From positions 2,740,513-2,804,512 of the forward strand of contig NZ_KB235948.1 of the NCBI RefSeq assembly GCF_000332335.1: a stretch of DNA of 64,000 bases. The letters are read 5' to 3'. This DNA comes from Oscillatoria sp. PCC 10802. Its GTDB lineage: Bacteria > Cyanobacteriota > Cyanobacteriia > Cyanobacteriales > Oscillatoriaceae. Shown piece after piece: positions 39,363-56,706 of this stretch. The notes under the pieces are model-generated. The model was given only the letters and a program-made list of their open reading frames with translations, was not told the origin of the DNA and ran no database searches. The first letter of the stretch is position 1. Every line of letters starts with the position of its first letter. The position numbers were made by a program, and so were the translations under genes.

Positions 39363-42300
39363 CTACTTTTCTTTGGACAGAATCAGGTTGAGGACGTTCA
39401 GCTCACTGGAAGTTAGGAGGTATTTGTCGGTAAAGATTTTTTCCCTCATCTCTTCTAAACTGTAGCTCCTGAAGATAAGAAATGGGAATTCTCCATACTT
39501 GCGACCGATGGGCAGGGTGTTGTATGCTGGGTACAGGGAGTGAACATACCTGGACATGAGCGTGCGAAATTCGGTGTCTTCTTCCTCTTCGGGATTGGTT
39601 TTGAAATAGTCCCGCATCGCCTCACCGGCAATAAAGGCAAATAGTGGTAAAGCATAATACTGATCGTCTCGCTGGCTGCTCTGCTCAAACCACTGAGTTC
39701 GGGTAACTTCCCCGCTGAGCAATTTCACCAACTCCATCGCGCCACCCCTGAGGGCGGTGCGCAGGTTTTCCGGGTACTCCAAACTGTGGCTAATCGCCCG
39801 CATTTTCGCGATCAGTTCGGGGGTGGCGTGCTTCCTGATCTGCTGCTCCAGCCGAATTTGGTAAGTTTCTTCCAGGGTTTTCTCACCCACCGGCACCACC
39901 AGCAAGCTGCCACTGATGTGCCCCGGTTCTATCTTACCATAATCTAGCAATTTGTCAAAACTTCCGCACAGCTGGGAAAACTGCCGGTTGAACAAGTCTC
40001 GCAAGGAAAGATAGGAAAGCTGTTCAGAAAGCCGGTTTCTTGGAGAAACCGGCTTTCTGGGTTTATCTGCATCGAGCAAGGTAAATTCGGCTCGGCTGAG
40101 AATTTCCTGCAAACTGGTATAAACCTGCTGAAGCGTCAGGTTGCTGGGACGCCGGCGGTGTTCGTTCTTCAGTTCTCGGATTAGATTCGTCATCTGACTG
40201 GTAAAGGTATCACCGGCTGCTGACACAGACTTCCCGCCGATAGGAATCATCATAAACTCTTTCCTGCCCAGACGCCAAGCCCCCACAATCCTCGTCATCA
40301 CGGAAATCTTGAGAATCAGCAAGATATTTAACAAACTTAGCACGCTTTCCTGGATAGAAAGCTGGCGCTCTTTGGCATAATCCTCGAAAGACATATCCCG
40401 CTCTTTGGGGTAATATAGCGCTCGATCGGACAAGTAAAAAATCAGCTCCTTGTCTTCGCCGTCGAGCGTCTTGCTTTCCCCATTTTCCCAATACTCCCCA
40501 CGCGCTCTGTAGATCACCTGGATAACTTCCATCAGGTTTCTCTCTACCTGGAAGCGGGGAATTTCCGCCAGGATGCGCTTCGCCTTGGGAAAGGACAGCC
40601 CCCGACTCGCGGAAGAGGTCATAAAGATTACCTTGACATTATTCTTGTGCCGGTGTATATTTTTCTTAGCCTCCTCGGAGAGATTGGCGTGTATTTCCAG
40701 GTAGTCCTCATTCTCCTTGAACTTTTCCCGCCGGCTGCGAAGTTTCTCAATTAGCTCCTGCAATCTCTTTTTGTCCTGGATGTACACCAGCAGCTGATCG
40801 GCGTCTGGATGTTCCAAGTAGGCGCTGATGTCCTCGGCTATCTTTGACTGTACGGCTTTCACCAAGCTGTTCCCTTTATATGAAAACGCCTCCTCGCTGT
40901 ATTTCAAGCACTCGACAAACACCTTATAGGTGATTGACAAACTGCGAGCGGGGTAGGAGTTGGCGTTGATGGCGATAGCACCGGCTCTCTTAAACGGAAA
41001 CCGCGACACAGAAATAGGCGCTGCGGTTTGTTTCGCCATCCGGAAATAGATTTTGTCGGGTTCCGGTGAGGCTTCCGAGAGGTGCTGGGTGATGACTTCT
41101 GGGTCAACAATAGAGGCGTCTGCAACAATGACTTTGGTGTTGAAACCGTGCTTCGCTAGCTGAAACCGGCTCAAGAACTGGCTGATTCCTTTCAGGAAGT
41201 TGACGCCGCTATCGTCGCCGGTGATTTCGTCTACCATTATGAAGACGTGCTTTATCCTTTGCGAGATTTGGCGCATCGCGGAGGGGATGACTTTCCCCTC
41301 GCGTTTATTGTAAGCACCTTTGAAGATTTTGTCAAGGTGTTCTAGGGTGTTGGCTCCATTCGGGGTTATCCGCAAAGACTGGATGGAAGCTGTGGCGACA
41401 ATATTATTGCAGCTCTTGCTGTCGATGAGGGCGTGGATTCCTTCGCAGATGCTAGAGAGTACGCCGGCGGTTCGCTCGCCAATATCTCGAAAGGTGTCTT
41501 CAGTTTCTTGCTTGAGGCGCTGCGGTTGCTGTTCCCGGCGCTGGCGCTCTCTGGTGGCGTTGAGGAAGTGGATGGACTTGGCGGTAAAATCATCCTGGCG
41601 CTGATTGGAATGATACTCGACTGTGGGTTTTCCGCCGTTTTCTTTGATGATGCTGGCGTTGGTGTTGATGCAAAACAGCCGGCTGTCGGACAGTTGCTCG
41701 GTGTCTGGTGATTTGAATTTCTCGATAATGTCTAGGTTGACTTGTTTGCGGGGACTGACGTAGAAGAACAAAAACCCCTCATCGAGGTGAGCTTGTAGGA
41801 AGTTGGCGATGGCTGTGGTTTTGCCAATTCCGGGATTGCCGGTTAAAAATATATAGGTGTCGTCAGAAACCAGGGCTTTTCTGATAAGTTCAGCGTGAGC
41901 GTCTCTCAGGTGGGATTTGGGACTGATGTCTAGCTGAGATGCTAGGTCAGCCGATATGGTATCTATAGAGTTGAGAAAGCCATCCATCCGCTCGGTGTGA
42001 GTGATTTCTGCAATCCCGTCCTCTCTGAGACTGAGAGGTTTTTCTGACAGCGCCTCGACAAACAGCTTCCCATCAGTAAAACTCCGATTTGCATTTCGCT
42101 GGATAATCCCTAAAACCTCTCGGCGAGCGATGTTGATTTCCGGTTTTTTAGCTTCATTTTTGTAAATCTTGGCACAAGTTGCCAGTACGTTTAAGTTTTC
42201 TGGGCGCAGGGACATGGCGCTGATGCCCCGGTCACTGTACCCCACTGCATTAAACACCACCGGCGCACTTTCTGTCAAGATGCAGGTCTGTAACAGAAAT

Positions 42301-43097
42301 CCATAGAAGCTGTGAGCGTAGGAAGCAGCTTGGATTAATTTGGCGCTTTCTTTGTCCTCCCGCTTAAAGGCGGTGAAGTACAGCTTCAAGTCCTCGGAAA
42401 ACTCCACCCCCAAGTTGCCGGTGGAGCCGGTGTCTATCCGCAGTTTGGAGAAAAAGCTTTTGGAGCGCAAATAGCTAATCTCGCGCAGCAACATGCGCCG
42501 CTGATTCTCCAGTTCTCTGTCTTCCAAGTCTAAGAGGTCTTGTGCGGACTTGACAGAAAATACGGATAAGTCTAGGGAAAGAATCCTGTACTTATCTCGG
42601 TTTTTCAAGAGCATCAGGGTGTCCGCTTTCAAAAACTCTCCCTTGTTTTTGTGCCGGCGAATCACCGTATCCAGGTTATCTAGAGTGCCAAACTGAGACA
42701 GGAACTCGGCATATTCTTTATCATCAGGATTTTTGGAATAGGTTTTGATGCTGTTCTCCCCACAAAAGCTGCACTGGTAATAGAGAATTTCGGTATTTGG
42801 CAAGTGCCGGTCGTCCCAACCGGCAGCTTTGATGTACTCCCCGAAGAAGTTTAACCCAGAGAGGAAGCCTTTCTGGATCGTGTACAGGCTCCACTTTTCT
42901 ACAATCCCGATATTCTCAGTGCTGATCAGTTCTTCATCCTCAACCATCCGCTTCAGCATTGCGGGGAAGTGCAAGTGCTGCAAATCGTGCCGGTACAGGT
43001 TGCCAAAGTTGTGCTTGATCTGGTGGTGTTCGATAAAGGCGAGGATGCCAATATTGAACCCCACCTCAAAGAGCCGGCCTAAGTTTTCTGCTATCAT
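39363..43097 (-). CDS. Large (1244 aa) uncharacterised protein with an SF2-helicase-like P-loop NTPase core (gene B of a two-gene island)
   Basis: Walker A GNPGIGKTT, Walker B FIMVDEITGDD, motif V-like TSSASRGLSFP (compare DEAD-box TDVAARGLDIP), motif VI-like QVIYRARG. An N-terminal region of about 400 aa has no recognisable motif. Lower GC than its flanks. Confidence 0.6.
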   Translation of the reverse strand: MIAENLGRLFEVGFNIGILAFIEHHQIKHNFGNLYRHDLQHLHFPAMLKRMVEDEELISTENIGIVEKWSLYTIQKGFLSGLNFFGEYIKAAGWDDRHLPNTEILYYQCSFCGENSIKTYSKNPDDKEYAEFLSQFGTLDNLDTVIRRHKNKGEFLKADTLMLLKNRDKYRILSLDLSVFSVKSAQDLLDLEDRELENQRRMLLREISYLRSKSFFSKLRIDTGSTGNLGVEFSEDLKLYFTAFKREDKESAKLIQAASYAHSFYGFLLQTCILTESAPVVFNAVGYSDRGISAMSLRPENLNVLATCAKIYKNEAKKPEINIARREVLGIIQRNANRSFTDGKLFVEALSEKPLSLREDGIAEITHTERMDGFLNSIDTISADLASQLDISPKSHLRDAHAELIRKALVSDDTYIFLTGNPGIGKTTAIANFLQAHLDEGFLFFYVSPRKQVNLDIIEKFKSPDTEQLSDSRLFCINTNASIIKENGGKPTVEYHSNQRQDDFTAKSIHFLNATRERQRREQQPQRLKQETEDTFRDIGERTAGVLSSICEGIHALIDSKSCNNIVATASIQSLRITPNGANTLEHLDKIFKGAYNKREGKVIPSAMRQISQRIKHVFIMVDEITGDDSGVNFLKGISQFLSRFQLAKHGFNTKVIVADASIVDPEVITQHLSEASPEPDKIYFRMAKQTAAPISVSRFPFKRAGAIAINANSYPARSLSITYKVFVECLKYSEEAFSYKGNSLVKAVQSKIAEDISAYLEHPDADQLLVYIQDKKRLQELIEKLRSRREKFKENEDYLEIHANLSEEAKKNIHRHKNNVKVIFMTSSASRGLSFPKAKRILAEIPRFQVERNLMEVIQVIYRARGEYWENGESKTLDGEDKELIFYLSDRALYYPKERDMSFEDYAKERQLSIQESVLSLLNILLILKISVMTRIVGAWRLGRKEFMMIPIGGKSVSAAGDTFTSQMTNLIRELKNEHRRRPSNLTLQQVYTSLQEILSRAEFTLLDADKPRKPVSPRNRLSEQLSYLSLRDLFNRQFSQLCGSFDKLLDYGKIEPGHISGSLLVVPVGEKTLEETYQIRLEQQIRKHATPELIAKMRAISHSLEYPENLRTALRGGAMELVKLLSGEVTRTQWFEQSSQRDDQYYALPLFAFIAGEAMRDYFKTNPEEEEDTEFRTLMSRYVHSLYPAYNTLPIGRKYGEFPFLIFRSYSLEEMREKIFTDKYLLTSSELNVLNLILSKEK

Positions 43098-43138
43098 ATT
43101 TTACTGCTTTGCTACGTTTATTATTTTACTCCAATTCC

Positions 43139-43228
43139 CCTCGTTCCCAGCCTGAGGCTGGGAACGCTGCTCGCTTAGGCTCTGCCTCCTTTTTACAACA
43201 AGCAGATTAAAAGCGTAATAGCTTATAG
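43139..43228. mobile_element. Repeat family R2, copy c, in the 180-bp spacer between the two large genes. It is followed by an R8 GC hairpin at 43229..43254.
   Basis: CCTCGTTCCCAGCCTGAGGCTGGGAACGCTGCTCGCTTAGGCTCTGCCTCC... Confidence 0.55.
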
Positions 43229-43277
43229 TCCTTCCCTCTTGGAGGGGAGGAGGGCTAAAGCCCTACTACGAACCTTT

Positions 43278-46200
43278 TTATCTAGATGCCTCCTCTATTA
43301 ATGCTTTCTTAATCTCGGTCATAAAGGCCAAAGCGTTAAACTCAATCTCCCCTCTCATGTGGTTAAATATAGACAGCTTCCCAAAGGAATCATCCCCGAT
43401 GATATTCTCGTAAGGGTCGAGTTTTAAACTGATGTTGCTGTTTTTCTCGAACCTCGAAAAGTGAAACAGCGTCAGGTATTGCAGCAAGTCAGCTTTCAGG
43501 GGAGTGTCCTCCAGCAATCCCCGCCGGATATCCATGTCATCGAGAATGCCTTCATAGATATTCACCAGTGTGGCGTAAGAAACAACGCCATTGTAAAAGC
43601 GCTCCTCGCTGCTCCCTACCGTAATCCCATTAAACAGGTTGAAAAACACAACAGCTTGCTGCTGGGGATCTCTGGACACACTTGTTAGCTGCTCGGTGTC
43701 TGTGACATACAGGGATTTAGCACGCCGTTCTCTTCTCTCCTTGTTGATGACGTAGTATTTATCAAAAAACACCGGGTATATCTTAATGTCCTGACGCTCT
43801 CCCTTCAACTCCTTGATTAGTTTGGGCGACATAAAATACAGTTCCTCTTCCCCCTGACTCCGGGTGATGTGCAGGGTGCTGGAATAGGGAGCTTGCGCGA
43901 TATACAAAAAGTGCCGGTAGCCCTCACGATAAAGATTGTCCACCGTATTGATGAGCACCGGCGCGTCGCGATAGATCCGCCAATTCGGGTAATTGTCAGA
44001 GAAAGTCTTGAGAATCTCCAGCCGAACAGTACCGTCCGCTTGGCGCGTGACGCTCACCACTTCTCCCAGCAAATTGGAAATGCGGCTGTTCCGGTTCCTG
44101 CTCCCTGTCCTAGCGTCGCTCTCTACGCTGGATACTATAATAATAGCAAGTTTTTCTAGCGTTGGAAACTCATCGACGAAACGAAACTTTTTCGGAAGCA
44201 CAGAGTACAGGGAACTCAGACCATTAGCAATGGTGTACCCTTTCAGGTTCTTCACCCGGAACCCTTGCGAACTGCACCGGCATTTCTCATTCAGCAGGTG
44301 GGACAGCCCTTTAGAAAGGTTTGCCAAAAACTTCTCAACCGGAAAAGGATTATTGTCGTCGCCCTCGTGCAACCGCAGCATCGGGACAAATAAATTGTCC
44401 GGAGCATTTTCCAGCAGAAGGTTCAGGCATATAAGCGCCAGCACGACCCAGGTGAACTGGTAAACAAAAGCCTGAGAGATGTCCAACCGATTCGGGTTAT
44501 TCTCGTTTAGATGCCGGTTGTCGTAGGGAAACAGGATTAGCTTGTGATGCTGCAAATTTTTGGTGTATTTTTCCCAGCAGGGATCTTGTTTGGGAACCCA
44601 AGCCACCGCCAGCGCACTTACCCCTTTTATATCATATTCCCAGCTGAACTTTTCCCGCTCTTCAGCCGGAAAGTAGCGGATATCTTCTATCGTAATGCTA
44701 GCCGGCAGCTGGCAGAGAGCGCCCTCATCCACATGCGCCCCGCCAATCGAGATATATCTCAAGCATTCCTTGGGATTGCGCCCCAAAACCTCCCTTAAAA
44801 AAGCCCCGTTAATCATGCTGTCGATCTCCCCTGGCGGGTTCAGGATGCCTTTCCTCACCGCAATCTGGATGGGATAGGTTCGGGTTGCCAAAATCGTCTG
44901 TCTCTCCAGAAAGTTTTTCAGCAGTTCCTTCAGCCGGCTTATCTTGTGGCGCACATTATACTCATTGAAGCCTCGCACAATTCCCCGAAATAGTTTCTTT
45001 TTCGCCTCCTCATTATCCCCCCGCAACACCGGCAAAACTTTTTCAAAGCCGGCAATTGGATCGTACTCCAGCTCGGAGTCAGGACTGTAATTGGGGTCTA
45101 AAGGATTGCTGCGAGAAGCAAAGACAAAAAAGTACAGGAGCACTCGCCTCAACACCCGTTTAGCAAAGCTTTCCTGCTTAGAAGAGTCCCCGATTTCCTC
45201 CTGATGTTTCTTGCTGTCTGGATTGATGATATCCAGATTGTAGTCAAAGACTTCATCCCCTCCCAGCGCTTGCACCTTGCCGGCCAACTTCAATTTTAGG
45301 CCAAAAACAAACTGAATCTCTCCCCCGCTCCTGTCCGTATTTTCTCCCAAATACCCGCCTACAATAGGAATGATCGGAAGGGAGTCCAGAGCTTCAGCGC
45401 GGGAAAACGCATCTTTATAGTTAACCGTCGCCCCAGCATAGCTCACTTCATAATGGCCATCCGGTCTGTCAGCGCTGATATACTCTTCTATCAGCCTCAG
45501 ACGCCGAATTAAATCTCGCAGATATATAAGTCCGGCGGTGTCTTGCGTCTCGATGCTGTCTCGCAGATACTCCAAATAAGTAATTTCCGCTTCCTTCTTC
45601 AGCTTCCCCAGAGTTTCTGTATCGACAATTTCCTGCAGCTGGTAAAATTCAGAAAATTCAGCGATTTCCAGACGGTCGAGAGCGCTATACAAATCTGCCC
45701 TGTCCTCTTCACTTTCCCAAGGCACTTCTTGCTCAATGTAGTTTTCCAATCCCCGCTTGAGATTTTCTTGAAACTCATCGATATTCCGCACCGCAATTGT
45801 GAGTTTGTGGAATTTCAGCAGGGACTCACCACCGGGACGGTCGAATTCTAGACTGAGTTTCTGTTTCACCAGGTTATCATACCGCTTGCCAAAGTCGTAG
45901 GCCAAACCCAACTGATCTGGTTTTCTCGTCGGAAAAGATTGCAAATCGCGCGTGATTAAACCGGCAACCAGTTCCTGAATAGAGCCGGTTTCTCCCAGTG
46001 CGGATTCTAGCTTCTCCCTCAAACACTCTCTTATCTCCCGCACCTTACCCGGAAAGACTTCTCGAAACCCCCGGCTAAAGTTGACACTTGCGGAGCGAAC
46101 ACTTTGCGAAGACTCCAGGGGATTCTGCACCTGCGCCGAAGTCGCGAGAGAGGCGGCTAATTCATCAATATCAACAAGCAACTTGCGGCGATCTCCCGAT

Positions 46201-46304
46201 ATCCTGAACGGATTGTGATTCCGCAAAGCCCGTAAAATCTTGTCCAGCAAATCGCTGTAGTTCACGGCGACTAAATCGCCGTCCCCCTGCTGTAAGATGT
46301 TCAC
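43278..46304 (-). CDS. Large (1008 aa) uncharacterised protein (gene A of the two-gene island)
   Basis: Single uninterrupted ORF. I recognise no catalytic motifs. Compositionally matched to gene B. Confidence 0.5.
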   Translation of the reverse strand: MNILQQGDGDLVAVNYSDLLDKILRALRNHNPFRISGDRRKLLVDIDELAASLATSAQVQNPLESSQSVRSASVNFSRGFREVFPGKVREIRECLREKLESALGETGSIQELVAGLITRDLQSFPTRKPDQLGLAYDFGKRYDNLVKQKLSLEFDRPGGESLLKFHKLTIAVRNIDEFQENLKRGLENYIEQEVPWESEEDRADLYSALDRLEIAEFSEFYQLQEIVDTETLGKLKKEAEITYLEYLRDSIETQDTAGLIYLRDLIRRLRLIEEYISADRPDGHYEVSYAGATVNYKDAFSRAEALDSLPIIPIVGGYLGENTDRSGGEIQFVFGLKLKLAGKVQALGGDEVFDYNLDIINPDSKKHQEEIGDSSKQESFAKRVLRRVLLYFFVFASRSNPLDPNYSPDSELEYDPIAGFEKVLPVLRGDNEEAKKKLFRGIVRGFNEYNVRHKISRLKELLKNFLERQTILATRTYPIQIAVRKGILNPPGEIDSMINGAFLREVLGRNPKECLRYISIGGAHVDEGALCQLPASITIEDIRYFPAEEREKFSWEYDIKGVSALAVAWVPKQDPCWEKYTKNLQHHKLILFPYDNRHLNENNPNRLDISQAFVYQFTWVVLALICLNLLLENAPDNLFVPMLRLHEGDDNNPFPVEKFLANLSKGLSHLLNEKCRCSSQGFRVKNLKGYTIANGLSSLYSVLPKKFRFVDEFPTLEKLAIIIVSSVESDARTGSRNRNSRISNLLGEVVSVTRQADGTVRLEILKTFSDNYPNWRIYRDAPVLINTVDNLYREGYRHFLYIAQAPYSSTLHITRSQGEEELYFMSPKLIKELKGERQDIKIYPVFFDKYYVINKERRERRAKSLYVTDTEQLTSVSRDPQQQAVVFFNLFNGITVGSSEERFYNGVVSYATLVNIYEGILDDMDIRRGLLEDTPLKADLLQYLTLFHFSRFEKNSNISLKLDPYENIIGDDSFGKLSIFNHMRGEIEFNALAFMTEIKKALIEEASR

Positions 46305-46316
46305 TCCGTTCCCTCT

Positions 46317-46586
46317 TCAGAACACTTGAATCCACTCTTTCACATTATACTCCGTCCAGATGCCGTTTTGCCAGTACGGATCTGCCTCAACCAGCCGGCG
46401 CACCGTAGCTTCATCTTCCGCCTCGTAGATGCCAAACACCTTGGTCACATCCTTAGTTGGGCCAACTGTAATTATAACACCGGCTTCTTTTAGCTTCTTC
46501 AGCCCATCCAAGTGAGCTTGCCGGAAAGGCTCCCGCTTTTCCAGCACATTCTCACAGTAACTTCCCCACATCACATACTTAGCCAT
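46317..46586 (-). CDS. YciI-like small protein
   Basis: 89 aa. YciI-family pattern with conserved His and Asp. 12 nt upstream of gene A on the same strand. Confidence 0.55.
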   Translation of the reverse strand: MAKYVMWGSYCENVLEKREPFRQAHLDGLKKLKEAGVIITVGPTKDVTKVFGIYEAEDEATVRRLVEADPYWQNGIWTEYNVKEWIQVF

Positions 46587-46681
46587 ACTTAATACAAAAT
46601 TTAGATTTCCCCTAGCGGGGGCGTCTGGAATTGCCGCCGGTACTATCCTACCACCCCCTCACCGGCAAGAAGTCACCCTTC

Positions 46682-46706
46682 CTGTAAAATTAACAAAAAT
46701 TTACAG
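46682..46706. promoter_or_regulatory. Near-perfect palindrome CTGTAAAATT-AACAA-AAATTTACAG in the promoter region of the yciI-like / large-gene operon
   Basis: Read directly. It lies about 100 nt upstream of the yciI-like start. Confidence 0.35.
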
Positions 46707-46719
46707 AAGTTTAGCATTT

Positions 46720-46838
46720 CCCCCAACACTGTCGCAGGAGGCAGAGCCTCTGATAGATGCGTTCCCAGCCTGAGGCTGGGAACGAGGAAGTCCGCGAAGG
46801 CGGACTTCGTTTGTATAGCCGCGATTTCAATCGCCAGG
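46720..46838. mobile_element. Mosaic repeat: an inverted R2 copy (GGAGGCAGAGCCTC...GTTCCCAGCCTGAGGCTGGGAACGAGG) fused to an R1-internal-like segment (GGACTTCGTTTGT...TTTCAATCGCCAGG)
   Basis: Both segments recur elsewhere (43139.. and 52230..52280 respectively). Confidence 0.5.
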
Positions 46839-46841
46839 TAG

Positions 46842-49271
46842 CTAACTTCTCAAACTAACATCAAACTGTTTAACCAGAGCCTCCCGAACCTTTTGGTGCA
46901 CCGGCTCAACATCAGAATCAGTCAGCGTGCGGTCGCCCACCCGATAAACCAGGCGAAACGCCAAACTTCGCTGACCCGAAGGCACATGCTCCCCGCGATA
47001 CTCATCAAACACCTCAACCGACTCCAGAAGCGAACCCGCAGCCTTAACAATTGCCCCCTCAAATTCCGCCACAGACACCCCAACCGGCGCGAAAAACGCA
47101 ATATCCCGGTCAGAAGCAGGATAGCTCGAATAAGCGCGGAACCTGCGTCCCAGCGCCCCCTCACCCACAGCAGCCAAAAGCACAGCTAAATCCAGCTGGA
47201 ACACATACACCGCATCTGGCAAATCCCGCTCTTGGCGCAACTCCGGATGCAGCTGGCCAAAAATCCCCAACCGGCTGTCTCCCACCCACAGAGACGCCGT
47301 GCGTCCGGGGTGCAAGCGCTCTTCAGAACTCTCCTGTTTCCACTCCACCGGCACATTAAAGCGCCCAAACACACTTTCCAGCACACCCTTCGCCTCAAAC
47401 CAGCTCAGCGCCTGCTCGCGACCGCCGCGCACCCACCGGCCCACTTCCGGATCGCCCCCAATAACGCCCGCCAGCGCCGAAGCTTCCTTCAAAACATCCC
47501 CGTCCTTCCAGAAAATGCGGCCAATTTCAAACCCATTCAGAGCGCCATTTCCTTGCTGCAAATTGTACTGAAAAGCGTCAATAAGCCCCGACAGCATCTC
47601 ACTCCGCAGCCCCGAATATTCCACAAACAAAGGATTCGCCAGCGCCACCTGATTTTCCGACACCGGCTTCACCAGAGAATAGTGCATCAGTTCCGTCAAA
47701 CCCGCAGCGCGGAAAGCCGATCGCAGCTCGCGAGTCAGCTGCTCCTCCACCGGCAAATAGCCCAACATCGCACTGCCCGGAAGCGTCTCGCAGAAATTAT
47801 CATAGCCGTACAAACGGGCAATTTCCTCAATCAAATCGATTTCCCGCTCCAAATCCCGATAGCGATACGCCGGCACCGTCACCGCCCACACCCGCTCTTG
47901 CGTGCGCTCCACACAGCAACCCAGCGCCGTCAGGATGCGCTCCATTTCCTCCGGTTGCAACTCGCCGGTGGCATCTCCCCGCTTCACCTTTCCCAAAAGC
48001 TGATTAACTCGGTCAAGACGCAACTCCACAGAGCGAGTGAAACTCGTCGGTCCCGTGCGGGAAATCGCCTGAGACACCGGCACCCCCCCAGCCAATTCAG
48101 CAATCAACTTCAGAGCTCGCCGGCACGCCACCGGCAATTCCGCCTGATTCACCCCCCGCTCATAGCGAGTGGACGACTCAGAGCGCAACCCCTGACTGCG
48201 AGACGACCGGCGGATCGCCGCCCCCTCAAAAATCGCTGCTTCCAGCACCAAATTTTGCGTCCCGTCACCGACTTCTGTTTCCTCACCGCCCATAACGCCG
48301 GCGAGCGCCACCGGCTTGTCATTGGCCACAATCAGCAGATTTTGTTCTTGCAGCGCCCGCAGCTGACCGTCCAGCGTTTTCAGGGATTCCCCAGCCTTAG
48401 CATATCGCACGCCAATTGTCAAGCTCTCGCTGCCGGCGACAGATTGCAAGCGCTCGCGGTCAAAAGCGTGCAGCGGCTGCCCCCACTCCAGCAAAATGTA
48501 ATTCGTGACATCCACCACATTATTAATAGGGCGAATCCCAGCAGCTTGCAGCCGGCGCTGCAGCCACTCTGGAGACGGGCCAATTTTCACCCCTTCAATC
48601 GCCGTACCGATATAAATCGGGCACGATTGCAGTGAATTGTCAACCCTCAAATTGGAACCTTCAGACAGGGTTTCCCCCAGCTCACCCGCTTCTGGAAGCC
48701 GCACAGTCGAGCCGGTCAGCGCCGCCACTTCCCGCGCCACCCCCACCATACTGAGAGCGTCAGCACGATTTGCCGTTGCTGTCAAGTCCAGAATCACATC
48801 ATCCAGACCCAGCAGAGGGCGGACATCGCTGCCCAGTTGGGGGTTTTCCAGCTCAAAAATGTGAATGCCGGCGGACTCCTTAGTCAAACCGAGTTCAGCC
48901 AGAGAGCAAATCATCCCTGCCGAAGGCACCCCGCGCAGTTTAGCCGGTTTAATTTTCAAATCCACATTAGGCAGATAAGTGCCAACAGTCGCCACAGCCA
49001 CATAGATATCAGCCCGAGCGTTAGGCGCGCCGCAGACAATATTGAGCGGTTCGTCCCCCGCCCCAATATCAACCTGGCACACCCGCAGCTTGTCCGCGTT
49101 CGGGTGTTGGGCGCAGCTGATCACCTTCCCAAGCACCACGCCATCAGCCCAAGTGCGCCGGTCTTCAATATCTTCCACCTCAAACCCAGCCATTGTTAGC
49201 GTTTCCGCCAACTGTTCCGGGCTCATCGTAATGTCTGTCAGTTCCCGCAGCCAATTCAGAGAGATACGCAT
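46842..49271 (-). CDS. pheT: Phenylalanyl-tRNA synthetase beta subunit
   Basis: 809 aa. N-terminal tRNA-binding domain ([10 protein letters not shown]...). B3/4, B5 and FDX-ACB domains. Confidence 0.95.
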
Positions 49272-49797: not shown

Positions 49798-52011
49798 ATG
49801 GACACTATACTGGGACAAACACTAGGTGGACGCTACAAAATCATCAGCTCCTTGGGAGGCGGGGCGTTTGGCCAGACCTATATTGCCGAAGACCACCAAC
49901 TGCCTGACCACCCTCGGTGCGTCGTCAAGCAGCTCAAACCGCAGGCGAAAGACGAACTGACACTCAAGACAGCCAGACGTTTATTCGACACCGAAGCCAA
50001 AGTCCTGCACCGGTTGGGAAGCCACGACCTGATCCCGCGCTTGCTAGCGCACTTTGAGGAACAGCAGGAATTTTATCTCGTGCAGGATTGTATAGAAGGA
50101 GAGCCTCTCAGTCAAGAGATTCAACCGGGCAAGCAGCTGAGTGAAGCCTTTGCCGTCGCCCTGCTGAACGATGTTTTGCCGGCACTAGCGTTTGTCCACC
50201 GGCAGAACGTCATCCATCGCGACCTCAAACCCTCCAACTTAATCAGACGCGCCGGTGACGGGAAATTAGTCCTCATTGACTTTGGCGCAGTCAAACAAGT
50301 CAGCAGCCAGGGGATCAGCGAAGGTGTTACCGTTGCCATTGGCACTCCCGGCTACATGCCCAGCGAACAGCTAGCCGGCAGTCCCCGCCCCAACAGCGAC
50401 ATTTATGCCTTGGGCGCGATTGCCATCCACGCCTTAACCGGCATTGCGCCATCCCGATTGCCGCAAGATCCGGTTTCCGGCGAGCTCGTCTGGCGCGACA
50501 GAGCCCGGGTGAGCGAACCGCTGGCCCAGATTTTGGACAAAATGGTGCGCTCGCACTTCAGGGACCGCTACCCGTCCGCAGAGGAAGTCCTCGCCGACCT
50601 GGCCAACCTGCCCCAAGGGGACCGCACCGAAAACCAAGGGGAGCCCACCCCCTCCCAAATCAGACCGCCCAACCGCTCAACACCCACCGGCGGTGCGCCC
50701 GACACCCCCACTGGGACGGTAGTGCCCCCCCCTGTGCCGCGCCGGTTCAAGCTTTGGCACGTCGGGGCGATAGTGGCGGTGTTGGGATTAGCCGCCGGCA
50801 GCCTAGCGTTTTTCCTGCGCCCAGATCCGCTCAGCCAAGCCAATAAATTAATCGACGCCCAGCAGCCAGAAGCAGCGCTCACTATCGCTGACGGGGTGCT
50901 CAAAAACCGGCCCGATGACGCAAAAGCCTGGAAAATTCAAGGCGATGCCTACTTTTTTTTAGAGCGCTACGAGCAAGCGCTCCTCGCTTATGACAGAGCG
51001 CTGAAAATCCAGCCCGATGACCCCAAAATTTGGAATAACCGGGGCAAGACCCTGTATCAATTGCAGCGCTACGACGAAGCCCTAAAATCTCATGACAAAG
51101 CCCTCGAACTCAATCCGAGTGACGTGCAAGCCTTGAACGGTCGGGGACGCGCCCTGATTGGCATGAAGCGCTTTCAAGAAGCGCTCGACGCCTTTGACAA
51201 AGCCCGCCAAATCCAGCCGAAAGAGCCCAAATCTTGGGAGAACCAAGCTTTTGCCTTAGAGTATTTGCAGCGCTCGCAAGAGGCGCGCCAAGCCTATCAA
51301 GAAGCCCTGGCCTCCTACAGCGACACCCTCAAAGCCAATCCCAAGGATATCCAAGCCCTGGTTGACCGGGGGAATGTGTTAAGTAAATTGCAGCGCTTCC
51401 CAGAGGCGCTCAATTCTTTTGAGGGGGCGATTGCCACCGACCCAAACTACTATCCCGCTTGGGTTGGCAAAGGCAGTGCGCTGTTTTTCTTGCAGCGCCC
51501 GGATGACGCGCTCAAAGCCTACGACAGGGCGCTGGAAATCAGGCCGAAATTCCATATCGCTTGGCACAACCGAGCCTCTTTGCTCGCTGAATTGCAGCGC
51601 TTTGAAGAGGCCATCAAGGATTATGACAGGGCGCGGGAATTCAACCCAGACTTCTATCAGGCGTGGCGAGACAGGGGATTTGCTCTCTTGCAATTGCAGC
51701 GCCAGCAAGAGGCAATCGTTTCTTTTGACAGAGCCCTGAGAACCGAACCCAATGACCCTAAATCTTGGGTGGGTCGGGGCATCGCCCTCACCGTCAGCAA
51801 GCGCTACGACGAAGCCCTAGCCGCCCTTGACAGAGCCATAAAAATCGCTCCCAGCGATCCGGTTGCCCTGTTGAACCGAGGTGTTGCCCTGGAGGGTTTG
51901 GGACGGAACGAGGACGCGCTGGAAGTCTATAACAAAGTGATTGAAATTCAGCCCAACTTCTTGCCGGCTATCCAGCAGCGCAAGCAGTTGCAGGAGAAGT
52001 TAGGGCGCTAG
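49798..52011 (+). CDS. Serine/threonine protein kinase with a TM segment and a C-terminal TPR-repeat array
   Basis: GxGxxG, VAIK-like K, HRDLKPSNL, DFG, APE motifs. At least 12 TPR repeats. Confidence 0.85.
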   Translation: MDTILGQTLGGRYKIISSLGGGAFGQTYIAEDHQLPDHPRCVVKQLKPQAKDELTLKTARRLFDTEAKVLHRLGSHDLIPRLLAHFEEQQEFYLVQDCIEGEPLSQEIQPGKQLSEAFAVALLNDVLPALAFVHRQNVIHRDLKPSNLIRRAGDGKLVLIDFGAVKQVSSQGISEGVTVAIGTPGYMPSEQLAGSPRPNSDIYALGAIAIHALTGIAPSRLPQDPVSGELVWRDRARVSEPLAQILDKMVRSHFRDRYPSAEEVLADLANLPQGDRTENQGEPTPSQIRPPNRSTPTGGAPDTPTGTVVPPPVPRRFKLWHVGAIVAVLGLAAGSLAFFLRPDPLSQANKLIDAQQPEAALTIADGVLKNRPDDAKAWKIQGDAYFFLERYEQALLAYDRALKIQPDDPKIWNNRGKTLYQLQRYDEALKSHDKALELNPSDVQALNGRGRALIGMKRFQEALDAFDKARQIQPKEPKSWENQAFALEYLQRSQEARQAYQEALASYSDTLKANPKDIQALVDRGNVLSKLQRFPEALNSFEGAIATDPNYYPAWVGKGSALFFLQRPDDALKAYDRALEIRPKFHIAWHNRASLLAELQRFEEAIKDYDRAREFNPDFYQAWRDRGFALLQLQRQQEAIVSFDRALRTEPNDPKSWVGRGIALTVSKRYDEALAALDRAIKIAPSDPVALLNRGVALEGLGRNEDALEVYNKVIEIQPNFLPAIQQRKQLQEKLGR

Positions 52012-53673: not shown

Positions 53674-56600
53674 CTAGAGAACGTCTTTCCGCTTCTGCAC
53701 CACCAACAGGAGGCCAAACATGCCCGCCATCAGCAAGCCCAGGGAACTCCAGTGCTGAGTCACATCTACATTGAAAGTGCGGCCATAATCTTTATTGAAC
53801 CGTTCGAGAGTGCCTTCCGCTTCCCCAATAGCGCTTTCGTATTTCCCTTTCCAATCGCTGTACTTCTCCTGCCAGCTGTCGATGGCTTTTTTGTATTCAT
53901 CCACCTTCTGATTGTAAGCATTAATATCCTGCCTGAAATTGTCCATTTCCTGCTGGTATTCCGGTGTGGGAATTTCCGGCGCTGTGGGCTGGGGTGGCGG
54001 ATTCCCCGGATCTTGTGGCTTCTCAGGTTCTGGCTCGTCTACGGCTTGGTTGTATTTACCGCGAATCCCAGGAAACTGACAGCTTTTGAAAATCCTCGGC
54101 CCGATACAGGCGCATTTCTTCTGTTCCGAGTCGCTGAGTTTCTTGCGCTCCTCCTCCGGCAGCTGCCAGCACTGGTCATTGGCCACATCTTTGCCCAAGC
54201 CGGTGAGCGTCACCAGCGACTCAAACGGCCATTTGCTGAGGGTGAGCTGGTTGATCGCTTTCCCCGGCGGGCCAAAGTTTTCCACGGACAGCATGCCGCC
54301 GCCAAAGGTAATCTGCGGCACCAGGAAAACAATCGTCAGCAAAGGAGCCACATTCTGATTTGGGGAAATCGCCGAAACCAGCAAACCCATTACCATACCG
54401 GCAATCGTCGCCAGGAACAGCGTCACATACATGCCGGCCAGCACTTCTGTCCCGCCGGGAATGTCCACCGCCAGAACCTTAAACAGCAAGAAAACCGCCG
54501 CCTGATACATAGCCAGCACGACGCTAACCCACACCTTTGACAGGATATAAGGAAGGAGCTGCAAACCAATGGTTCGCTCCCGGCGATAGATTTCCTGCTC
54601 CTTAACAATTTCCCGCATCGTCGCCAGACTGCCAACCATCACCGCAATCAGAGCAGCCGTGAACAGCATCGTGATCGCCTGACGCGGATCTCCTTGCCCG
54701 GCATCGAACAAATCGCGCTTCCAAGTGACAAAATCCAGCAGTCCCAACACCGGCGCGATGGCCAGCATCAAAATCAGGCTAGACCGGTCGCGCATCAAAA
54801 TCGCCAAATTGCGCTCAGACAGAATCAGGAACTGACCCAAAGCCGAGATGCGCTTCACCTTAGCCCCTGGTCGCTGTTTCTGCGGGCGCGGGCTTTGCCC
54901 CCCTGTCGCAGGCGCTTGCAAAGATTGCTGCCGGCGCACCACATATTTCTGATATTGTGGCGAATTGAGGTAGCGCTGCTGCCATTTTTCGGGCGAGATT
55001 TCACGCTCAACCAGACGGTAAATTTCATCAAAATCTCCCACCCCAAAGTAGGCGGGGGCTTCTGCCGGCGGCCCGAAGTAGGCCACATACCCTCCCTTCG
55101 CCAGAAACACCACTAAATCGCACATTTTGACATTTTTAGTGGCGTGAGTGATCAGCAGGATGGTGCGCCCTTGATCCGCTAGTTGGCGCAGCAACTCCAT
55201 AATCTCTAGCTCTGTCCCCGGATCGAGGCCAGAAGTCGCTTCGTCGAGAAAGAAAAGGCTGGGTTTAGTGAGCAGTTCCACCCCCATCGACACCCGCTTC
55301 AGCTGACCGCCGCTGAGGTCTTTCACCGGCACGTCCTTGCGGTGAGTCAGTCGCAGCTCTTCGATCACCTCCGCCACCCGCTTCTTGCGCTCCGCCCGCG
55401 TCGTGTCCGCCGGCATCCGCAACCGGGCTGCGTAGTCCAGAGCTTGCTCTACGGTCAGCTCTGTATGAACAATGTCCTTCTGGGGCACATAGCCCAGTTC
55501 TGTGCGGTAAGCGTTAAAGTTCTTGTACAGGTCTGTGCCGTTCACCAGCACCGTGCCGCTAGTTGCCGGTCGGAAACCATTGAGGGCGTCGAGCAGGGTG
55601 GACTTGCCGCCGCCACTGACGCCGGCAATCACCACAAACTCCCGCGCTTCGATTGACAGAGATATGTCATTTAAAAGGTTAACGTCCTTGGCGACGACCT
55701 TATTCAAGTGCACGGCGTCCAGGCGCAGGTTGCCCTGTTCGTTTTTGCGGACGAGGGTTTCATCGACGTTGAAGACTAAGCTGCATGGCCCGATGCGGAT
55801 GGTGTCCCCGGCCATCAGCACGCGCTCGGCGTCAATCTGCTTGCCGTTGACGAAGGTGCCGTTTGTCGAGTTGAGATCGGTAATGGTCCAGGAGCCGGCT
55901 TGCTTGACAATTTTGGCGTGGAACCGGGACACTGCAGGGTGGTCGATGGCCGTGTCGTTTTGGGGGTCGCGCCCCAAGCTGAGGCTGGTGCGCCCGCGCA
56001 AGTCCAGCTGCTCGACTGCAGTTGGCATTACGGTTGCCGGTGCTAGCTCGTAGGTGAGGGTGACTTCCCCACCAATTTGCAATACGTCCCCATCTGCCAA
56101 GACCTTGCGGTCGATGCGGTGGCCTTCGCTTAGCAGGCCGTTGGTGCTGCCGAGATCGACGATTTCATAGCCGTTTGACCTCCGTCGCAATTCGGCGTGC
56201 CGGCTCGAAATCACCGACGCATCAATGCGAATGTCACAATTGGGGGCGCGACCGATAACGATGGTGTCTTTTGACAGGGGGAAATTCCTCGTCCCCTGCG
56301 GCGTTTGCACTCTCAGCACCGACGCGCCGGAGGCTGCGGCTACAACCGTGTCTGGTAAAGTGGAGGAAACATATACTTCGGTCTTTTCTTCTTGTGCGGC
56401 CACCGGGCAGAATCGCAGTTCAAATATGTCGATGGCGATTCTGTCACTGTCGGCTAAGGGGTGGGGTTTGTCAGGTTGCAGTTTAATGTCATTGAGCAGC
56501 GTGCCCTTTGAGCTCCCTTTGTCGGCTATTGTATAGCCGTCTGCTTTCCGGACAATCTGAGCGTGGTGGCGCGAGACGGTGGGCTCGTTGAGGACAAGGG

Positions 56601-56706
56601 CGTTTTCCGGTGCCCGACCGATGTCGGTCAGGTCGCGGTCAAGCAGGAACTCTCGCTCAAGGTTGCCGCCTCGATAAATTTCCAATTTGGCAGAGGGTGG
56701 GGACAT
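53674..56706 (-). CDS. FHA-domain-containing ABC transporter (three N-terminal FHA domains, ABC ATPase, ABC-2-type permease) with a coiled-coil C-terminus
   Basis: Three repeats of G(R/S)....D..(L/I).........S..HA.I. Walker A GVSGGGKST, LSGGQ, Walker B FLDEATSGLD. Six TM helices. Confidence 0.85.
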   Translation of the reverse strand: MSPPSAKLEIYRGGNLEREFLLDRDLTDIGRAPENALVLNEPTVSRHHAQIVRKADGYTIADKGSSKGTLLNDIKLQPDKPHPLADSDRIAIDIFELRFCPVAAQEEKTEVYVSSTLPDTVVAAASGASVLRVQTPQGTRNFPLSKDTIVIGRAPNCDIRIDASVISSRHAELRRRSNGYEIVDLGSTNGLLSEGHRIDRKVLADGDVLQIGGEVTLTYELAPATVMPTAVEQLDLRGRTSLSLGRDPQNDTAIDHPAVSRFHAKIVKQAGSWTITDLNSTNGTFVNGKQIDAERVLMAGDTIRIGPCSLVFNVDETLVRKNEQGNLRLDAVHLNKVVAKDVNLLNDISLSIEAREFVVIAGVSGGGKSTLLDALNGFRPATSGTVLVNGTDLYKNFNAYRTELGYVPQKDIVHTELTVEQALDYAARLRMPADTTRAERKKRVAEVIEELRLTHRKDVPVKDLSGGQLKRVSMGVELLTKPSLFFLDEATSGLDPGTELEIMELLRQLADQGRTILLITHATKNVKMCDLVVFLAKGGYVAYFGPPAEAPAYFGVGDFDEIYRLVEREISPEKWQQRYLNSPQYQKYVVRRQQSLQAPATGGQSPRPQKQRPGAKVKRISALGQFLILSERNLAILMRDRSSLILMLAIAPVLGLLDFVTWKRDLFDAGQGDPRQAITMLFTAALIAVMVGSLATMREIVKEQEIYRRERTIGLQLLPYILSKVWVSVVLAMYQAAVFLLFKVLAVDIPGGTEVLAGMYVTLFLATIAGMVMGLLVSAISPNQNVAPLLTIVFLVPQITFGGGMLSVENFGPPGKAINQLTLSKWPFESLVTLTGLGKDVANDQCWQLPEEERKKLSDSEQKKCACIGPRIFKSCQFPGIRGKYNQAVDEPEPEKPQDPGNPPPQPTAPEIPTPEYQQEMDNFRQDINAYNQKVDEYKKAIDSWQEKYSDWKGKYESAIGEAEGTLERFNKDYGRTFNVDVTQHWSSLGLLMAGMFGLLLVVQKRKDVL

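Follow-up and report, generated by a model that had tools for sequence, protein, structure and literature searches.

We analyzed a 64,000-nucleotide (nt) stretch of the Oscillatoria sp. PCC 10802 genome (contig NZ_KB235948.1; hereafter the window), in which three co-directional genes on the minus strand encode a small YciI-like protein followed by two very large proteins, referred to here as A and B. An earlier note, made from the sequence, had singled out these genes as a candidate conflict or defence module pairing a protein of no recognizable kind with a helicase-like NTPase, and the gene coordinates bear out both the shared orientation and the intergenic gaps that it gave, 12 nt between yciI and A and 180 nt between A and B. 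The start codons of A and B are backed by N-termini that align to the family consensus. The locus comprises the following features (aa, amino acids; SF2, helicase superfamily 2):

39363-43097, minus strand: gene B, 1244 aa, predicted SF2 helicase/translocase, effector candidate
43098-43277, minus strand: spacer between A and B, holding a copy of a 23-nt palindrome at 43143-43165
43278-46304, minus strand: gene A, 1008 aa, GTG start, predicted very divergent Argonaute-like protein, sensor candidate
46317-46586, minus strand: yciI-like gene, 89 aa, with YCII and PRK12864 matches
46587-46841, minus strand: region upstream of yciI, with an inverted repeat at 46682-46706 and a copy of the 23-nt palindrome at 46761-46783

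A predicted Argonaute-like fold in gene A

No match to gene A was found in Pfam, PADLOC or NCBIfam, and its profiles returned nothing significant among PDB sequences. Similarly, the Piwi (PF02171) and PADLOC prokaryotic Argonaute (pAgo) models do not match A at E-values up to 0.1, and the Piwi and pPIWI_RE profiles match none of 46 diverse family members, gene A included, at E-values up to 1. This agrees with the earlier note, which could identify no motif in A, but an AlphaFold2 model built from 82 sequences (predicted local distance difference test, pLDDT, 82.1; predicted template modelling score, pTM, 0.78) points to an Argonaute fold that the note had missed. Fold comparison of this model gave the following matches (PDB entry, then score):

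MpAgo, 5i4a, 11.5, with 365 residues aligned
AfPiwi, 6t5t, 11.5
Med13, 8tqc, 11.3
EfPiwi, 7yfq, 11.1
CpAgo, 9jh8, 11.0
HrAgo1, 8r3z, 11.0
SPARTA short pAgo, 8j8h, 10.8
SPARDA short pAgo, 9qbp, 10.5
SIR2-APAZ/Ago Piwi protein, 8in8, 10.2
CtAgo, 9iad, 10.2
SiAgo, 9lgw, 9.8

On the basis of these matches, the model assigns to A the contiguous arrangement of a Rossmann-like MID domain and an RNase-H-like PIWI domain that makes up the Argonaute fold, and about 100 residues beyond MID-PIWI also align with long Argonautes. One AlphaFold model and its fold comparison therefore identify A as a very divergent Argonaute-like protein, with two regions of particular interest:

44175-44609, minus strand: candidate MID domain, A residues ~566-710, alternating strand and helix in the model
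43281-44153, minus strand: RNase-H-like (PIWI-like) region, A residues ~718-1008

To the extent that A family members retain common residues (65 diverse sequences, 26% mean column identity), P310, K339, Q680, S698, P806, P844, Y910 and H948 are invariant. The invariant Q680 belongs to a K665...Q680-G681...K705 series of the Rossmann-like region (spaced by 15 and 25 residues), in which G681 is conserved at 96% and K665 and K705 at 87% and 89% as residue class. Their spacing resembles that of the K-Q-K part of the pocket in which the guide's 5' end is bound in Argonautes, and they may constitute such a pocket in A; the Y-x3-K motif is not evident in the A family, while the K-Q-K-like residues are conserved. 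In the PIWI-like region the model has a beta-meander (718-732, 742-754 and 760-773), a helix (782-793) and a strand (798-804). The first strand of the meander carries D730, which is conserved at 96%, and the fourth strand is followed by an AxAPY segment, with P806 invariant and no acidic residue, at the position of the second catalytic Asp ('RDG') of Argonautes. Conservation is complete at H948 and reaches 98% at E953. The PIWI domain of A thus probably lacks a complete DEDX tetrad, and A would be a guide-binding but probably nuclease-dead protein.

Gene B and the A-B pair

The Walker A and Walker B motifs and helicase motifs that the earlier note had read in gene B were all recovered: Walker A is GNPGIGKT at residues 420-427 (K426), Walker B is DEIT, and a Helicase_C match above the Pfam cutoff spans residues 758-865 (E 5.6e-7). 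This is the only above-threshold Pfam match of B, with sub-threshold P-loop families placed around GNPGIGKT, and Walker A, Walker B, motif V and motif VI are invariant in the B family. The B profile found nothing significant among PDB sequences. For fold searches B was represented by a modelled homologue, P0187 (1195 aa, corresponding to B residues 16-1241 at 59% identity; pLDDT 83.2, pTM 0.81), which matched Snf2-type ATPases, DEAD-box proteins, MrfA/YprA (12.7), DinG (11.8), ZorD, Cas3 and HamB (10.9), UvrB, HrpA and RecQ, with no SF2 subfamily standing out. The motifs and the model together indicate that the core of B is an SF2 helicase/translocase with intact ATPase motifs. It is bounded by two terminal domains, and the helicase core dominated both fold searches:

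41898-43097, minus strand: B N-terminal domain, residues 1-400, conserved, possible nuclease
39366-40496, minus strand: B C-terminal domain, residues 868-1244, conserved

The N-terminal region of about 400 aa that the earlier note could not recognize has indeed no PDB match at E-values up to 10 with its profile, and 20 of its members gave scattered, inconsistent sub-threshold matches in Pfam and none in PADLOC. Thirteen of its residues (E11, Y106, Q108, G153, D159, D176, K213, T223, D248, K249, K253, Q256 and Y260) are nonetheless invariant from cyanobacteria to Bacillus, and their acidic/Lys pattern, together with a QxxxY helix, recalls RecB/Cas4-type PD-(D/E)xK nucleases, a likeness that amounts to a motif-level guess. 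The C-terminal domain profile has no significant match among PDB sequences; three of 20 members weakly match the PADLOC candidate PDC-S49 (best E 3.6e-5, B residues 1114-1187). In place of a conserved cysteine cluster B has only C109, C308 and C551, which are not conserved outside cyanobacteria.

To assess the spread of the family, we surveyed one genome per species across 185,579 species, fetching the 80 best loci. Relatives of A occur in 266 of these species genomes, and the best 80 are all cyanobacterial. A set of 5.8 billion proteins contains 448 relatives of A and 902 of B, nearly all from filamentous cyanobacteria, and a HMMER profile of A retrieved only 334 clusters from 1.84 billion representatives, almost all of them full-length at ~1000 aa; judged by its sequences, the A family is closed.

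A co-directional B follows A in 66 of the 81 A copies with enough downstream sequence, and the two genes are at most 60 nt apart or overlap in 48 of these 66 pairs; in the closest relative (L003) the spacer is ~800 nt. Exceptions to the order are the second A of tandem arrays, a few orphan A genes and one locus that retains only the last 28 codons of B. Tandem yciI-A-B-A(-B) arrays are present at seven Microcoleus loci (L037, L069, L029, L031, L053, L065 and L066), where the two A copies are each ~47-53% identical to the A of the window and the second sometimes has no B, a divergence that points to old paralogy within one locus. An apparent A-B fusion of 2028 aa (P0279), from a 6.7-kb metagenomic ENA contig, has A at 1-990 and B from 1025, at 40% identity. 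A and B are therefore a conserved two-gene module outside current defence catalogues, with members named in databases only as 'hypothetical protein' and 'helicase-related protein'. A literature search for accession numbers of family members found none, and a description outside the searched literature is possible.

In several genomes small open reading frames without a Pfam match (clusters c37, c63, c35 and c88) or DUF29 genes lie between A and B, and the junction seems to be a recurrent insertion site:

L003, 13183-13725: A-B insertion
L018, 13311-14380: A-B insertion
L079, 13169-14740: A-B insertion
L058, 4852-7380: A-B insertion
L015, 12989-14700: A-B insertion

Genomic surroundings

Outside the cyanobacteria, distant relatives of A (20-27% identity) occur sporadically in the Bacillus cereus group, Gottfriedia, Hazenella and Epulopiscium, and the pair is still linked in Firmicutes at 20-28% identity. 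In three Bacillus assemblies an A of 1021 aa overlaps by 8 nt with a B of 1216 aa (28% identity over nearly the full length); in the Bacillus cereus group the pair lies between three large serine recombinases and a SIR2 gene (PADLOC Lamassu LmuA/Thoeris ThsA, 3e-47), and Hazenella has the same A-B pair. Six Nostocales plasmids, all six conjugative, also carry A-B. On plasmid C of A. variabilis the two genes overlap by 4 nt and adjoin a tyrosine integrase and a DDE transposase, upstream of a TmtA-like gene; on pNPM2 of Nostoc N6 the neighbourhood of a pair with 28% identity includes DISARM drmD and an integrase; and in Nostoc NIES-4103 the pair is placed between ParA-like and XisA/transposase genes. 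Phage records searched by tblastn and scanned viral contigs contain no A-B match, and megablast of the locus against plasmids gave none. The pair has been jointly transferred between phyla and onto plasmids.

In Nostocales, A-B is followed by very large hypothetical proteins, one of 828 aa whose N-terminus is TmtA-like, one exceeding 1800 aa and one of 1214 aa, which might be extra lineage-specific components or a neighbouring system:

L081 (A. variabilis plasmid C), 15689-23526: large proteins after A-B
L072, 17103-20750: large proteins after A-B

The identity of the yciI-like gene given in the earlier note was corroborated by matches of its 89-aa product to Pfam YCII (6.5e-22) and NCBIfam PRK12864 (2.7e-46). 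Of the 80 loci, 43 have it next to A, and nearly all of these show pheT synteny; no other lineage has yciI beside A. Microcoleus, Kamptonema, Tychonema and Oscillatoria keep the order pheT-yciI-A-B, while Argonema, Floridaenema, Laspinema, Phormidium, Nostocales and Firmicutes have no yciI beside the pair. The sites that A-B occupies without yciI differ by lineage among Argonema, Floridaenema, Laspinema, Phormidium, Okeania, Nostoc and Tolypothrix. Of the three-gene module first proposed, the A-B part holds, but yciI as a system component is ruled out by its absence next to A-B in other lineages; it is a lineage-specific upstream neighbour rather than a core component, here probably co-transcribed, and as a bystander provides this lineage's promoter.

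The low GC content from which the earlier note argued for horizontal acquisition is real, but its interpretation is not upheld. The total GC of A, B and yciI (0.49-0.50) is the minimum of the window, where the gene mean is 0.556 (z -1.6 to -1.8), whereas their GC at third codon positions (GC3) is ordinary (0.58-0.63, z -0.02 to -0.85). Because GC3 is normal, the dip stems from amino-acid composition and not from foreign codon usage, and it is ruled out as a sign of recent transfer. As pheT-yciI-A-B synteny is kept across Microcoleaceae-type genera, A-B is not a recent import into this lineage. Kamptonema formosum has records of proteins identical to both.

A perfect 23-nt palindrome, GTTCCCAGCCTCAGGCTGGGAAC, occurs in three copies in the window (37413-37435, 43143-43165 and 46761-46783), all intergenic, with a chance expectation of 0, and resembles a dispersed element of the repetitive extragenic palindrome or miniature inverted-repeat transposable element (REP/MITE) kind. 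Since A and B abut or overlap in most relatives, the unusual 180-nt gap between them looks like a small repeat insertion, accounted for by one palindrome copy. The palindromic operator candidate of the earlier note, an inverted repeat reading CTGTAAA-N11-TTTACAG at 46682-46706, is present, but among relatives it is retained only by the three closest, with a single compensatory change, and is missing upstream of yciI in Microcoleus. It was rejected as a conserved operator on these grounds and can be at most a weak operator candidate. The ~140 nt preceding the yciI start (46587-46730, minus strand), including the GC-rich stretch GGCGGCAATTCCAGACGCCCCCGCTAGGGG, are strongly conserved in L001-L003 and not in Microcoleus; the segment could be a 5' leader element. 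The region upstream of yciI has no Rfam match, an Rfam scan of the whole window found no family, and no tandem repeats, arrays or terminal repeats were found near the locus.

Of the two flanking genes named in the earlier note, pheT is correct, but cobK is ruled out, as the genes at 33934-39319 are an encapsulin/sulfur set instead. They form a sulfur-metabolism nanocompartment operon that flanks B:

33934-35379, plus strand: family-2 encapsulin (SrpI-like, with a fused cyclic-nucleotide (cNMP)-binding domain)
35354-37273, plus strand: cysteine desulfurase with a long N-terminal extension
37538-38383, plus strand: hexapeptide (CysE-like) transferase
38402-39319, plus strand: two sulfur-transport halves (YeeE/DUF6691)
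46842-49271: pheT, flanking gene on the other side of the locus, outside the operon

Just upstream of the encapsulin operon is an 888-aa bacterial homologue of the eukaryotic Major Vault Protein (30668-33334, plus strand; Pfam Vault repeats 7e-69, MVP_shoulder 5e-55 and Vault_2/3/4), so that two distinct protein-shell genes adjoin. On the other side of the locus, a fusion of a Ser/Thr kinase and a long TPR array (49798-52011, plus strand) and an ATP-binding cassette (ABC) transporter with three N-terminal FHA domains (53674-56706, minus strand) lie a few kb apart and are possible signalling partners, as kinase and phospho-threonine reader.

Proposed function and known systems

We propose, with a probability of roughly 0.55, that A and B together make up a surveillance module of two genes built around an Argonaute, whose targets are most likely plasmids or other invading DNA. 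This is in keeping with the earlier note, which had suggested a conflict or defence module in which an unknown protein is paired with a helicase-like NTPase and which fits no system that it could name. The proposal draws on the good model of A, the invariant ATPase motifs of B, the tight coupling and apparent fusion of the two genes, and their patchy and mobile distribution. In such a module, A would hold a short nucleic-acid guide in its MID-type pocket (K665, Q680-G681 and K705) and pair it with a complementary target; with an apparent lack of the canonical DEDX centre in its mapped secondary structure, A would signal rather than cut. By analogy with DdmDE and ApsAB, A may then recruit or activate B, an ATP-driven SF2 translocase, which would move along the target while its terminal domains, the N-terminal one possibly a nuclease, degrade or displace it.

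Several observations weigh against this proposal. There is no sequence-level link from A to any Argonaute family, and the pocket and DEDX placement come from secondary-structure mapping and not from residue-level superposition. Alignment (hhalign) of the B N-terminal domain with an alignment of Uma2, a PD-(D/E)xK family, from neighbouring genes gave nothing, and the C-terminal domain has neither a D...(D/E)xK pattern nor a nuclease match. The only source of the P0279 fusion is one short contig, and a frameshift or an error of gene calling could have produced it. The stable site between pheT and the sulfur operon and the host-like GC3 in Microcoleus-type genera are atypical of a defence island. 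Most cyanobacterial neighbourhoods consist of ordinary genes, with scattered Uma2, DUF29 and SocA-type genes, and the link to defence islands comes from three or four mobile-element contexts.

A broader version of the surveillance proposal is more tentative, with chances that we place slightly below even: A may found an unrecognized deep bacterial Argonaute/PIWI branch beside pAgos, pPIWI-RE and DdmE/ApsB, joined to a dedicated helicase with a new N-terminal effector module, possibly a nuclease, with long vertical residence in the mat-forming, toxin-producing Microcoleus, Kamptonema and Tychonema, exchange with Firmicutes and plasmids, and a role in guide-dependent immunity or plasmid control.

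Stable pheT synteny would also suit a self-directed machine of filamentous cyanobacteria for chromosome maintenance or nucleic-acid processing, acting in replication termination or decatenation, repair, surveillance of R-loops or transcripts, or control of natural transformation, and the divergence of the genes (identity of ~53% for A and ~56% for B, with ~72% for pheT) fits vertical descent. Such a function also accords with host-like GC3, with lineage-specific conserved housekeeping neighbours (dnaN, uvrC, transporters and an amylase, assigned by reading sequences and not by profile scan) and with the housekeeping-type roles reported for some pAgos, namely decatenation by TtAgo and the roles of SeAgo and LrAgo under topoisomerase inhibition (PMC10269773). 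We nevertheless consider this main alternative unlikely: the patchy distribution over 266 species genomes, the carriage on conjugative plasmids and a Bacillus recombinase island, the orphan, deleted and tandemly duplicated copies and the differing chromosomal sites by lineage are the character of accessory, not core, genes. The mobile carriage could instead mean that A-B serves the mobile elements themselves, in plasmid or island competition, exclusion, addiction or guide-directed integration, and was then left on chromosomes. All six plasmid records are conjugative, recombinases of the tyrosine and serine types are found next to the pair, as are a DDE transposase and its ATP-binding partner and ParA-like and XisA-like genes, and cyanobacteria are described as rich in guide-directed transposons (PMC9881144). 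This seems quite improbable, however, as most of the 80 chromosomal loci have no adjacent recombinase or transposase, this locus lacks terminal repeats and arrays, A-B is absent from viral and phage records, and mobile carriage is equally expected of defence cargo.

The Druantia/Hachiman-type logic suggested in the earlier note, in which the 1008-aa protein would be an unrelated novel partner of such a helicase system, did not hold up. No PADLOC system model matches A or B at a meaningful E-value, the HamB and YprA matches rank below generic SF2 matches, neither DUF1998 nor DUF1837 is present, and the model of A has an Argonaute fold, which neither system contains; this fold effectively excludes that reading, and the closest analogues become DdmDE, ApsAB and pPIWI-RE instead.

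Few nucleic-acid-targeting principles in biology are programmable; Argonaute immunity is among them, and its branches SPARTA, DdmDE and ApsAB have each given new mechanisms and tools. While Argonaute-plus-helicase conflict systems are already known, what is new here is an unannotated protein, Argonaute-like in its model, with a dedicated SF2 helicase, widespread in filamentous cyanobacteria. If guide-dependent, the A-B pair would widen Argonaute-fold sequence space, add a helicase effector architecture unlike that of DdmD or ApsA, and bear on the poor transformation and conjugation of many filamentous cyanobacteria, and its stable chromosomal residence would be a case for long-term tolerance in polyploid cells.

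In DdmDE, a plasmid defence system of Vibrio cholerae, the DNA-guided, inactive pAgo DdmE loads the helicase-nuclease DdmD (bioRxiv 10.1101/2024.05.10.593530). Like A-B, it consists of two genes, for a protein of Argonaute fold (DdmE being a 'long-C' pAgo; a canonical DEDX tetrad is missing from DdmE and probably from A) and an SF2 helicase of ~1200 aa, but there is no detectable sequence similarity. The helicase of DdmD is N-terminal (Walker A at K55) and is accompanied by a C-terminal PD-(D/E)xK nuclease (K1102) that has been proven; in B the helicase (K426) is central, behind an N-terminal domain of 400 aa, and a nuclease is only a candidate. DdmE is also ~300 aa shorter than A, and ddmD precedes ddmE, whereas the Argonaute-like gene comes first in A-B.

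ApsAB, an anti-plasmid system of E. coli ST38 with relatives reported in cyanobacteria, similarly combines an Argonaute-like protein with a helicase (PMC11096173), the former invisible to sequence searches, as is A, and the latter a large SF2 enzyme. ApsB has a MID-type motif Y-x3-K...QG...K, of which A has Q680-G681 and K705 while Y-x3-K is not evident, and ApsB is said to be without the PIWI RNase-H fold that the model of A has. The cyanobacterial ApsAB-like pairs (PMC11096173) differ in size (~770 and ~1317 aa), in a Walker A near residue 45 and in having the helicase gene first; hhalign of the A and B profiles with the first 399 aa of Microcoleus ApsB-like and ApsA-like proteins gave only the P-loop (probability 3.5%) or nothing. 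In DdmD and in ApsA-like proteins alike, Walker A lies far closer to the N-terminus and is followed by a C-terminal nuclease, whereas the helicase of B is central, after a 400-aa domain.

The pPIWI-RE systems, predicted to restrict invading DNA, comprise a PIWI protein, a DinG helicase and a restriction endonuclease (PMC3702460). They share with A-B a divergent PIWI protein of ~800-1070 aa with an extra N-terminal region and often lost catalytic residues, and a linked SF2 helicase; Med13, described in the same paper (PMC3702460), scores as high as pAgos against A. Their operon order is endonuclease-DinG-PIWI, whereas in A-B the PIWI-like gene comes first, no restriction endonuclease gene is found in 80 loci and there is no iron-sulfur (Fe-S) cysteine cluster. 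Moreover, the RNaseH_pPIWI_RE and pPIWI_RE_X profiles match neither A nor 45 other members, DinG is not the best structural match of B, and A. variabilis, an A-B carrier, is absent from the pPIWI-RE family list (Burroughs, Iyer and Aravind 2013, PMC3702460). SPARTA, SPARSA, SPARDA, SiAgo-Aga1/2 and BPAN act by abortive infection through TIR, SIR2, nuclease or membrane-protein effectors, none of them a 1244-aa helicase, and their PIWI domains are seen by sequence profiles, whereas that of A is not. By analogy, A-B would work like DdmDE, where such a mechanism is established, and like ApsAB and pPIWI-RE, where it is proposed, yet none of the features compared, some of them only in part, placed it within any of the three, and it is probably an undescribed relative of the plasmid-destroying Argonaute-plus-helicase systems.

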